From: Eledone cirrhosa
Taxonomy: Eukaryota
Direction: 5' to 3'
Assembly (NCBI GenBank): GCA_964016885.1
Contig: OZ024742.1
Coordinates: 20,336,001-20,400,000, forward strand
DNA: 64,000 bases
Within the stretch, counting starts at the first letter, position 1. Every line of letters starts with the position of its first letter. This document shows positions 58,301 through 59,547 of the stretch, piece by piece. The translations under genes were made by a program, and so were the position numbers. Below the pieces are notes generated by a model. That model was not told the DNA's origin, did no database searches, and saw only the letters and a program-made list of their open reading frames with translations.

Positions 58301-58366
58301 GGCGAGAGTGGATGGTTTTAATTGTTTTGGTGTGTTGTTAATTTGTTTGTTTGTTAATGGCAGCAA
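55346..58366 (-). CDS. LINE ORF2: APE endonuclease + reverse transcriptase (no 5' AUG; frame open from 58483)
   Basis: APE motifs LNAKG, LTETHL, YRPP, GDFN, LDLIF, SDH; RT motifs [38 protein letters not shown]1-type C-terminus RPHLEYC, SLQRRR. Confidence 0.95.
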
Positions 58367-59547
58367 TGGGAGTTTGTGCAGTGGGGTGATAGTGGAGGGT
58401 GGTGCTGGGTGATAGCTCGAATGTTTTTTTCCAGTTCTTTTGCCAGATTCATTATGGCTAAAAAAGAGGAAGAAGTTTCCTGTTTAGAAGACTGTTGGTG
58501 ACTGTGGTAGTGGTTATTTTTATGTAGGTTATGGTTTTTGTTTTTGCTTTTATTTTTAATTTTATTTTCATTTATCCGACGGGTCCCCGGGAGATGGGTA
58601 AAGGGACAATCCCGGTCTAAACACAATCTGTCTCGCAGGGAAAAACGGCAGATTTGTGGATTCCTTGTTTGAGTTATTGGTGGTTGTGTTGGTGTTAAAT
58701 TAGAGTATGTATTATGGTGGTGGCTGTTTGTGGGGATAGATCGTTTTGTCCTAGGTAAATGGGTGAATTTGCAGCCACTATCCGTACATATTCTATAGCG
58801 TAGAGAGTAGCGGCAAATGATGGGGTTTCGAGTGGGTGGGTATATGGGTGTGGGTGTTGTGAGAGGTGTAGATGATGGTTTGGGTAGGATTTGACGACCT
58901 TTGTGGACTGTGGGAGGGAGAGTTCTTGTTCTGGTATTAGAAGGTAAATTCCTTGACATAGCAGTAGACAAAAATGTAGTAGTAGTAGTAGTAGTAGTAG
59001 TAGGCAGAGATGTTGGCAGTGGTGATGATTGGACTGCTGGGCCAGAGAAAGGATGTGGCGTTTCATGCTGTGAGACAGAGGCTACTGGGGGGTCAATAGT
59101 TTCATTTAGTAGATCGGCCATTGTTGATGAATCAAGGAGTGGTTCACACTGTTGTTGTTGCTGTTGTTGATGTTGTTGTTGTAGCTGTTGTTGATGTTGT
59201 TGTTGTAGCTGTTGTTGTTGTTGCTGTTGTAGCTGCTGTTGTTGTTGTTGTTGCTGTTGTAGCTGCTGTTGTTGTTGTTGCTGCTGCTGGACAGCATTCG
59301 AAGAGAAAACACACCGTAGTTTATCCAAATGTTTATTGATTAATTTAAAAGCAATTTCGATTTGCTTTAATTTATTTTGAATCTGTTGTTCAGATCGAGT
59401 TTTCAAAAATTGAACTGTACGTTTAGCAATGTCGTTCAGAGATGAAGCATCTATATTTTCTGTTTGGGAAAGGCAATGCCATGTGTTTATTAGAATGTCG
59501 ATTTCATTATCAGACCAGTTCTGTTTGGATTTTTGCTGGTTAGCCAT
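58354..59547 (-). CDS. LINE ORF1 (397 aa): Myb/SANT-like N-terminus, polyQ, Thr/Pro-rich linker, two CCCH zinc fingers
   Basis: [27 protein letters not shown]; two C-x8-C-x4-C-x3-H motifs; homologous ORF in copy E. Confidence 0.88.

Follow-up and report, generated by a model that had tools for sequence, protein, structure and literature searches.

A stretch of 64,000 nucleotides from Eledone cirrhosa (contig OZ024742.1, positions 20,336,001 to 20,400,000 of the forward strand), here called the window, carries a long interspersed nuclear element (LINE) whose first open reading frame (ORF1) joins a probable Myb/SANT-like domain, a polyglutamine (Q) tract and two tandem CCCH zinc fingers. The second frame (ORF2) encodes an endonuclease and a reverse transcriptase (RT). 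All positions below are those of the window.

A LINE with a composite ORF1

The copy with both ORFs open, copy A, is organised as follows (UTR, untranslated region):

55270..59620, minus strand: LINE copy A, both ORFs open, 5′ UTR probably clipped
58354..59547, minus strand: ORF1, 397 aa, ATG start
59299..59523, minus strand: Myb/SANT-like domain (probable), residues about 9-83, from PF13837 (23.9 bits, E 5.5e-5, cut-off 27), AlphaFold2 helices and alignment
59149..59289, minus strand: Q tract, residues 87-133, 47 aa, 41 Gln
58831..59148, minus strand: low-complexity linker rich in Ser, Thr and Pro, 55 S+T+P within residues 134-240
58759..58815, minus strand: CCCH finger 1, C245, C254, C259 and H263, spacing C-x8-C-x4-C-x3-H
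58594..58650, minus strand: CCCH finger 2, C300, C309, C314 and H318, duplicate of finger 1
55346..58483, minus strand: ORF2 frame, 1045 codons between stops, in the -1 register to ORF1, which it overlaps by 130 nt
57626..58291, minus strand: APE-type endonuclease domain, Pfam PF14529 and PF03372, match to L1 ORF2p
56000..56731, minus strand: RT core, Pfam PF00078, E 4e-31
55270..55345, minus strand: 3′ UTR, ending in a 10-nt tail unit that runs into a TA array

Five further copies lie in the window. The six are 96-99% identical and share one 3′ end; the tail unit occurs once in copy A and twice in each of copies B-F.

43502..47077, plus strand: copy B, complete ORF1 region interrupted by a stop in the Q tract, ORF2 deletion of about 730 nt, 97% identity to copy A
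39258..42487, plus strand: copy C, 5′-truncated, 254-nt 5′ inversion, stop in the endonuclease
28217..30501, minus strand: copy D, 5′-truncated, TA on both flanks
17546..18203, plus strand: copy E, 5′-truncated, TA on both flanks
36277..36711, plus strand: copy F, 5′-truncated, TA on both flanks

ORF2 has an APE endonuclease followed by RT, as in APE-type LINEs, and its best solved relative is L1 ORF2p (E 1e-21). Truncation of copies at the 5′ side, their shared 3′ end and their tail of short repeats point to the same class. Copy B begins its ORF1 at 43559 (plus strand) and has the Myb-like head, the Q tract and the fingers joined to the same ORF2. Hence, the three-part architecture, which an earlier note on this DNA had read from copy A, belongs to the element and not to one copy.

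The element is also abundant. Among the public sequencing runs listed, 20 of 24, from 14 studies, contain the LINE stretch or part of it. None of those listed as containing it is an RNA run, which has no bearing on expression. Four runs were compared over 55271-59145, a stretch that ends short of the Q tract and the Myb-like domain. The summed contig depth of run X2 averages 132,648 over the five 3′-most bins and 5,441 over the five 5′-most (ratio 0.04, an about 25-fold fall); this is a gradient of 5′ truncation, such as an abundant LINE should show, and not a copy number. A contig of run X4, which bears another organism label, spans both fingers and the ORF overlap with a single difference, at 58844. 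The element is thus a young, high-copy APE-type LINE. It likely belongs to the CR1 clade, a label that we presume from RT and C-terminal motifs.

Two structures at the 5′ ends of copies deserve mention. In copy C the 5′ segment of 254 nt (39258-39512) is inverted with about 23 nt missing at the joint, which resembles twin priming; such structures are familiar from L1 and are less expected in an element devoid of a poly(A) tail. Directly upstream of copy B lies a unique sequence (43140-43505) that contains TA tracts and a tandem duplication of 50 bp. Possibly this is the LINE's genuine 5′ UTR, in which case the element would have TA tracts of its own.

The ORF1 domains and their relatives

The N-terminal part of ORF1 shows the pattern W11-x7-L19-x3-W23, I40-A41, R51-S52 and Q55-I-Q-N-K-L, as the earlier note had it except that the first spacing is x7 and not x8. 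Its relatives come from a HMMER search of 1.84 billion proteins, which gave 23 matches; 12 were retrieved and 11 were dropped, chiefly for similarity to the Q tract or the low-complexity linker. P0005 and P0019, whose matches are fragmentary or of low complexity, do not enter the alignments. Three relatives align with the N-terminal domain (P0001, P0003 and P0018, 38-45% identity), and one of them, P0001, passes the PF13837 cut-off with 31.7 bits. A profile built from the three scores 93.1 bits on the N-terminal 86 aa and at most 10.9 in 500 shuffles; since the relatives were themselves found with this protein, the score speaks for homology and not for function. In the ESM Atlas P0001 reaches 0.94 to a PF13837 cluster with 188 of 256 features in common, and its ten best family matches all fall in one family or clan. 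The query itself reaches 0.84-0.85 to PF13837 clusters, which serves as a lead only.

AlphaFold2, run on the four-sequence alignment, predicts helices at residues 13-28, 34-47, 53-72 and 74-84 (predicted local distance difference test, pLDDT, 74; predicted template modelling score, pTM, 0.52). R51, Q55, I56, N58, K59, K61 and I63 are invariant in all four sequences, so that half of the 14 invariant residues fall in the predicted recognition helix (residues 51-63). From the bulky aromatic core W11 and W23 are kept in three of the four sequences, and the later core positions are L/F and I/L. Taken together, we consider the domain to be quite probably Myb/SANT-like, and the call of the earlier note thus finds moderate support: P0001 and the ESM Atlas speak for it, but the query stays below the Pfam cut-off. 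The model check it proposed came out mixed as well, with three helices predicted, but with the homeodomain or SANT chains (21 of the 39 Foldseek rows listed) all at E 1.4 or worse.

Several observations weigh against the assignment and against what we build on it. PF13837 gives 18.5 bits on the whole ORF1 and 23.9 on residues 1-86, P0003 gives 15.5 bits and P0018 has no match. Fold searches of the domain with Foldseek and VIA-align found no significant Myb/SANT match; in VIA-align the DNAJC2 SANT domain has Z 4.6 (root-mean-square deviation 5.3, 69 aligned), and the best Z, 5.6, goes to an unrelated, unspecific fold. Once the choice of window is allowed for, the clustering of invariant residues in helix 3 has P 0.06. 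The Myb-like and CCCH parts never occur together in one full-length relative, as P0001, P0003 and P0018 (N-terminal) and P0002 (C-terminal) are separate fragments. Finally, the relatives were seen as protein, outside any DNA context, and so they are LINE ORF1s by presumption.

The single-sequence model of the domain had no Foldseek match and otherwise unspecific helical matches only, and searches of PDB sequences with it gave no Myb/SANT chain; GCN4 matches of P0001 there were put down to a heptad-like stretch. A word-based protein search with the whole ORF1 gave no match in 8000 candidates, and alignment of the N-terminal domain found none in 7420 longer proteins and only the three input relatives among proteins of near length, all weak negatives. 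DNA of the relatives was absent from viral contigs, and one distant metagenome locus (L001) was found at 23% identity; four short bacterial matches were judged spurious.

What the domain contacts can be approached from the same alignment. The third predicted helix extends with a hydrophobic heptad pattern (I56, L60, I63, F67, I70, L74, L77 and F81), kept over residues 56-81 in all four sequences. The domain is weakly basic (12 K+R against 9 D+E), two of the three aromatic positions of the Myb core have become L/F and I/L, and in two relatives a PHD-like cluster lies in the N-terminal half. These features would suit a domain that acts through protein contact and not through DNA, by oligomerisation with helix 3 and the Q tract, by nuclear import of ORF2p or by SANT-like reading of histone tails; for Harbinger elements, Myb-like proteins are reported to import their transposase into the nucleus (PMC9392472). 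However, the invariant residues are polar or basic and sit in the predicted recognition helix, which DNA contact fits better, and we regard protein contact as improbable. Judged from its residues, then, the N-terminal domain may bind DNA, and it may have been captured from a Harbinger-type or host Myb-like gene.

The Q tract is coded by a CAA/CAG microsatellite with CTA/CAT interruptions and differs in length in copy B; in copy A it has 47 residues, where about 48 had been noted. In P0001 and P0003, too, a short run of Gln follows the head; the combination of head and Q tract therefore predates this subfamily.

With 63% identity over 40 aa (E 2e-15), the two finger units show that the duplication described in the earlier note is real. 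Its CCCH call is supported too: all four ligands are invariant in the eight aligned sequences. Pfam falls short of its cut-offs on the fingers (zf-C3H1 19.2 bits against 20.9, zf-CCCH_2 17.4 against 25.8), and they have a weak likeness to the CCCH fingers of Muscleblind (E 0.07). By analogy with the behaviour of the CCCH family, the fingers would bind single-stranded RNA.

The unit P-x2-C-x2-S-x5-C-x4-C-x3-H-x2-G-T-x-R is invariant in all seven finger-bearing relatives, and in most of them the shared finger is the last of a two- or three-finger array. The full-length relatives P0010 and P0011 have in addition a PHD-like Cys/His cluster upstream, in the N-terminal half. We take P0010, P0011, P0006, P0012, P0013 and P0020 (ENA/Logan assemblies) to be presumed ORF1s of invertebrate CR1-like LINEs. 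Judged from the alignment, the ORF1 finger is the duplicated last unit of a CCCH array, homologous to the last finger of the related proteins. These relatives have the same C-x8-C-x4-C-x3-H finger with its HLxGTxR tail and, in several cases, the F-L helix downstream. Unlike in the ORF1 described here, however, they have two or three unlike fingers and, in the two full-length ones, the PHD-like cluster, in place of the last finger twice, the Myb-like head and the Q tract. The likely history is that the PHD-like region and the first fingers were lost, the last finger was duplicated and the Myb-like head was gained, a swap of N-terminal reader modules within the CCCH-array ORF1 group. This is consistent with the ORF1 module shuffling documented in CR1/L2 (PMC4120745).

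P0011 has at residues 13-57, ahead of the PHD-like cluster, a weak Tudor-knot/chromo-like match (E 9e-4, below cut-off). This head suggests repeated capture of chromatin-reader modules in the group.

A Pfam scan of ORF1 (E up to 1) found no RRM, CCHC knuckle, PHD, esterase or transposase-22 domain, and its sequence holds no CCHC or PHD ligand pattern. By Pfam and ligand patterns it thus lacks what defines ORF1 types I-IV (RRM with CCHC, coiled coil-RRM-CTD, PHD, esterase). In the CR1/L2 scheme of types I-V by Khazina and Weichenrieder, as extended in PMC4120745, the nearest is the PHD-only type V of CR1 subgroup 2. Our ORF1 is like the CR1/L2 ones in being modular, with an N-terminal reader-like domain before an APE-RT ORF2, but Myb/SANT and CCCH are absent from the domains listed in that survey of 448 elements, whose main text does not contain the words myb, sant or ccch. 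The words myb and ccch are likewise absent from the accessible text of PMC10294476. In the open-licence literature, searched by title and start of abstract, we found no description of Myb/SANT or CCCH in a LINE ORF1 or of a TA-targeting CR1; a Repbase or Dfam entry may exist. Thus the ORF1 architecture, a Myb/SANT-like head with polyQ and duplicated CCCH in a known LINE class, is apparently new and undescribed.

Similar domains serve other mobile elements. The Harbinger Myb-like/MSANTD proteins (PF13837) offer the same three-helix SANT-Myb-trihelix motif in an accessory protein of a mobile element; here, in contrast, the domain lies in a retrotransposon ORF1 and in the query stays below the Pfam cut-off. 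R2 is a non-LTR (long terminal repeat) retrotransposon with a Myb domain, which reads the target DNA (PMC12503042). However, R2 has a single ORF that combines zinc fingers, Myb, RT and a restriction-like endonuclease, whereas our element has an APE endonuclease and its Myb-like domain in a separate ORF1; the domain would share a chain with RT only if a frameshift (see below) occurs.

TA arrays and the choice of insertion site

From 14099 to 63042 (about 49 kb) the window is dominated by (TA)n arrays, G-interrupted on the plus strand and switching to C on that strand around 42500-50200; the zone has the look of a sink for nested insertions in which one block is inverted. Two arrays flank copy A:

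54852..55270, no strand: (TA)n array, G-interrupted on the plus strand, 3′ flank of copy A
59614..60258, no strand: (TA)n array, G-interrupted on the plus strand, 5′ flank of copy A

The six copies stop at the identical base of the tail unit, which overlaps the TA target. Past the 3′ end, TA/AT content over 30 nt is at least 0.7 in all six, and on the 5′ side in five. Copies A and D on the minus strand and C and F on the plus strand have G-biased TA on the plus strand on both sides. As this bias ignores the orientation of the copy, the TA arrays are older than the LINE insertions, and the same asymmetry rules out that the arrays are the LINE's own tails.

The earlier note proposed that the Myb domain tethers the ribonucleoprotein particle to (TA)n. 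In such a mechanism the domain would bind (TA)n sequence-specifically and ORF1 would set the target. The 3′ junctions lie in TA in six of six cases against a whole-window baseline of 0.43 (P 0.006), and a repeat like a short interspersed nuclear element (SINE; one copy near 2247-2460) has TA flanks in none of eight matches. The SINE-like repeat, by its resemblance, also points to a cephalopod as the probable host. The seven helix-3 residues stay invariant in all four sequences in spite of 38-45% identity. In Harbinger elements the Myb-like proteins bind DNA and bring in the transposase (PMC9392472), and the TRE5-A element of Dictyostelium has an ORF1 able to take part in targeting. However, against the baseline of the TA-rich zone itself, 0.61, the junction count is marginal (P 0.053), all matches of the SINE-like repeat lie in the TA-poor first 10 kb and the helix-3 clustering is weak after correction. 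Moreover, three unrelated retroposon-like families adjoin the TA arrays too, and because so many families occupy the arrays, the window data do not single out this ORF1. The tether is thus unsupported here, and we hold it to be unlikely. The loose-end consensus in the raw-read run, with 0.3-0.4 agreement, is too low to bear on TA targeting.

The repeats that share the zone are these. A 600-bp non-coding family has six copies (13953-14099, 22394-23001, 31968-32575, 53651-54212, 54245-54852 and 60260-60860) at 94-97% identity in one orientation, two of them left-truncated; their right end is common, with AT repeats directly after it in all six. It presumably belongs with RTE-derived non-autonomous retroposons, which it resembles. 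A 143-bp element (22221-22363 and 31798-31941) precedes two of its copies. At 37441-38460 (plus strand) lies a 5′-truncated RT fragment of another LINE (Pfam RVT_1 and DUF6451), with a short GATA-type tail into a TA array, which we take to be RTE-like. A second CR1-like family, a diverged one, is represented by its 3′ end at 35435-35712 (minus strand), where the tail repeat is 8 nt long and TA lies on both sides. A frameshifted RT with a C-terminal region occupies 50275-52177 (minus strand); the region presumably corresponds to a Penelope GIY-YIG endonuclease, which it resembles, and Pfam gives no GIY-YIG match there. A short repeat family also lies in the TA arrays (24773-24852, 32965-33065 and 62583-62845), the last with an internal inverted repeat of about 42 bp.

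The same crowding could mean that there is no active TA targeting, and that copies accumulated in a TA-rich, weakly selected region while the arrays grew around them. The presence of several unrelated families in the arrays and the marginal enrichment within the zone agree with it, and Waldo-A/B of Drosophila, which lie in CA repeats, have been explained in this way (PMC3812793). But five of the six copies are flush with TA on both sides, none of the six lies within the non-TA islands of the zone and the copies are young, with 96-99% identity. We consider passive accumulation decidedly unlikely.

We suggest that ORF1 is devoted to RNA packaging and general docking, and that the site is chosen by ORF2 and the RNA tail, a model that we rate as evenly balanced between right and wrong. 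ORF1 would package the element RNA through its CCCH fingers. Its Myb/SANT-type three-helix domain, which stands where two relatives have a PHD-like reader, would dock the particle on DNA or chromatin in general. The TA site would be picked by the ORF2 endonuclease and by the 3′ end of the RNA, which would pair with the nicked TA repeat. Microsatellite choice has been ascribed in print to specificity of the endonuclease or to passive accumulation (PMC3812793), and junction choice to pairing of the 3′ tail with the nicked target (PMC6007223). Site choice by endonuclease and RNA tail is more likely than Myb targeting. Weighing against this division of labour, the TA-site counts cover six copies in one window, and the other TA-resident families, whose ORF1s are not visible, may share an ORF1-type mechanism.

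The LINEs Waldo, Mino, Kibi, Koshi and Dong likewise insert into pre-existing microsatellites; however, their targets are ACAY, AC, TC, TTC and TAA, with no TA among them, none is named as CR1, and it is mainly the endonuclease that is credited with the specificity (PMC3812793). TRE5-A is also an APE-type LINE with an ORF1 implicated in targeting and a -1 frameshift for ORF2 (PMC5911963): its ORF1 protein contacts TFIIIB, which is proposed to help the targeting of tRNA genes (PMC5911963, PMC5006619). Unlike our element it belongs to the L1 clade, and it works, as reported there, through a protein contact at tRNA genes and not through a DNA-binding domain or a microsatellite. For CR1/L2 elements PMC4120745 proposes that the PHD domains of ORF1 target the genome. 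ORF1-based targeting, which the earlier note did not know to be described, thus has forerunners in TRE5-A and in the PHD proposal, but a Myb domain in ORF1 that reads DNA sequence-specifically would still be a novelty.

Expression of ORF2

In the ORF2 frame no methionine occurs before residue 148, which lies within the endonuclease and past its motifs at 65 and 101, and the frame overlaps ORF1 in the -1 register. Two heptamers in the overlap have the form of slippery sites:

58459..58465, minus strand: U_UUU_UUA heptamer in ORF1 phase (S-F-L codons), 18 nt past the opening of the ORF2 frame, candidate -1 site
58423..58429, minus strand: A_AAA_AAC heptamer (E-K-N codons)

The second was rejected as a frameshift site: E-K usage alone yields the heptamer about half the time, and P0002 has no K-N there.

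At the first, a -1 ribosomal frameshift may produce ORF2 as an ORF1-ORF2 fusion of about 1400 aa, which, as read from the sequence, we regard as possible though doubtful. Such a fusion would put the Myb-like domain and the fingers on one chain with the endonuclease and the RT and is compatible with any targeting model. The ORF2 frame has no methionine upstream of the two endonuclease motifs, the heptamer has the X_XXY_YYZ form in phase, and the -1 frame, having opened 18 nt upstream, stays open from it through ORF2. U_UUU_UUA with an open -1 frame arises in only 85 of 5000 synonymous recodings, although some heptamer with an open -1 frame does so in 49%. It is intact in copy B and in the X4 contig, and four of seven relatives have an [S/D]-F-L motif after the last finger; but F-L is absent from the other three, and as the motif opens a conserved helix it may be retained for protein reasons. 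According to PMC5911963, TRE5-A and TRE3-A depend on a -1 frameshift. On the other hand, nested folding and duplex scans found no 3′ stimulatory structure (z -1.3 to +0.9), copy B disrupts the small hairpin seen in copy A, and a scan for pairing with the 3′ end was negative, the heptamer windows ranking 383-771 of 829. UUG and CUG codons in the ORF2 frame, 7-12 nt before the ORF1 stop (58366 and 58363), would suit AUG-free reinitiation instead, and SART1 is reported to join its ORFs by stop-start coupling (PMC3894237).

If all of these elements acted together, a captured Harbinger-type Myb/SANT domain, fused to ORF2 by the U_UUU_UUA frameshift, would read (TA)n and direct the APE endonuclease to TA microsatellites, and the Myb-guided targeting of R2 would have been reinvented independently in an APE-type element; we give this little credence.

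The element would add to the LINE catalogue an ORF1 type with a Myb/SANT-like head, polyQ and duplicated CCCH fingers, and it points towards a larger family of CCCH-array ORF1s, apparently not yet catalogued, which exchanges its N-terminal module. It bears on how APE-type LINEs choose microsatellites and on how an AUG-less ORF2 is translated. The family is young and abundant with an intact copy, and the candidate determinants are small, a domain of 80 residues and a site of 7 nt. Should the domain prove to read (TA)n, it would amount to a targeting module of a retrotransposon that is portable.

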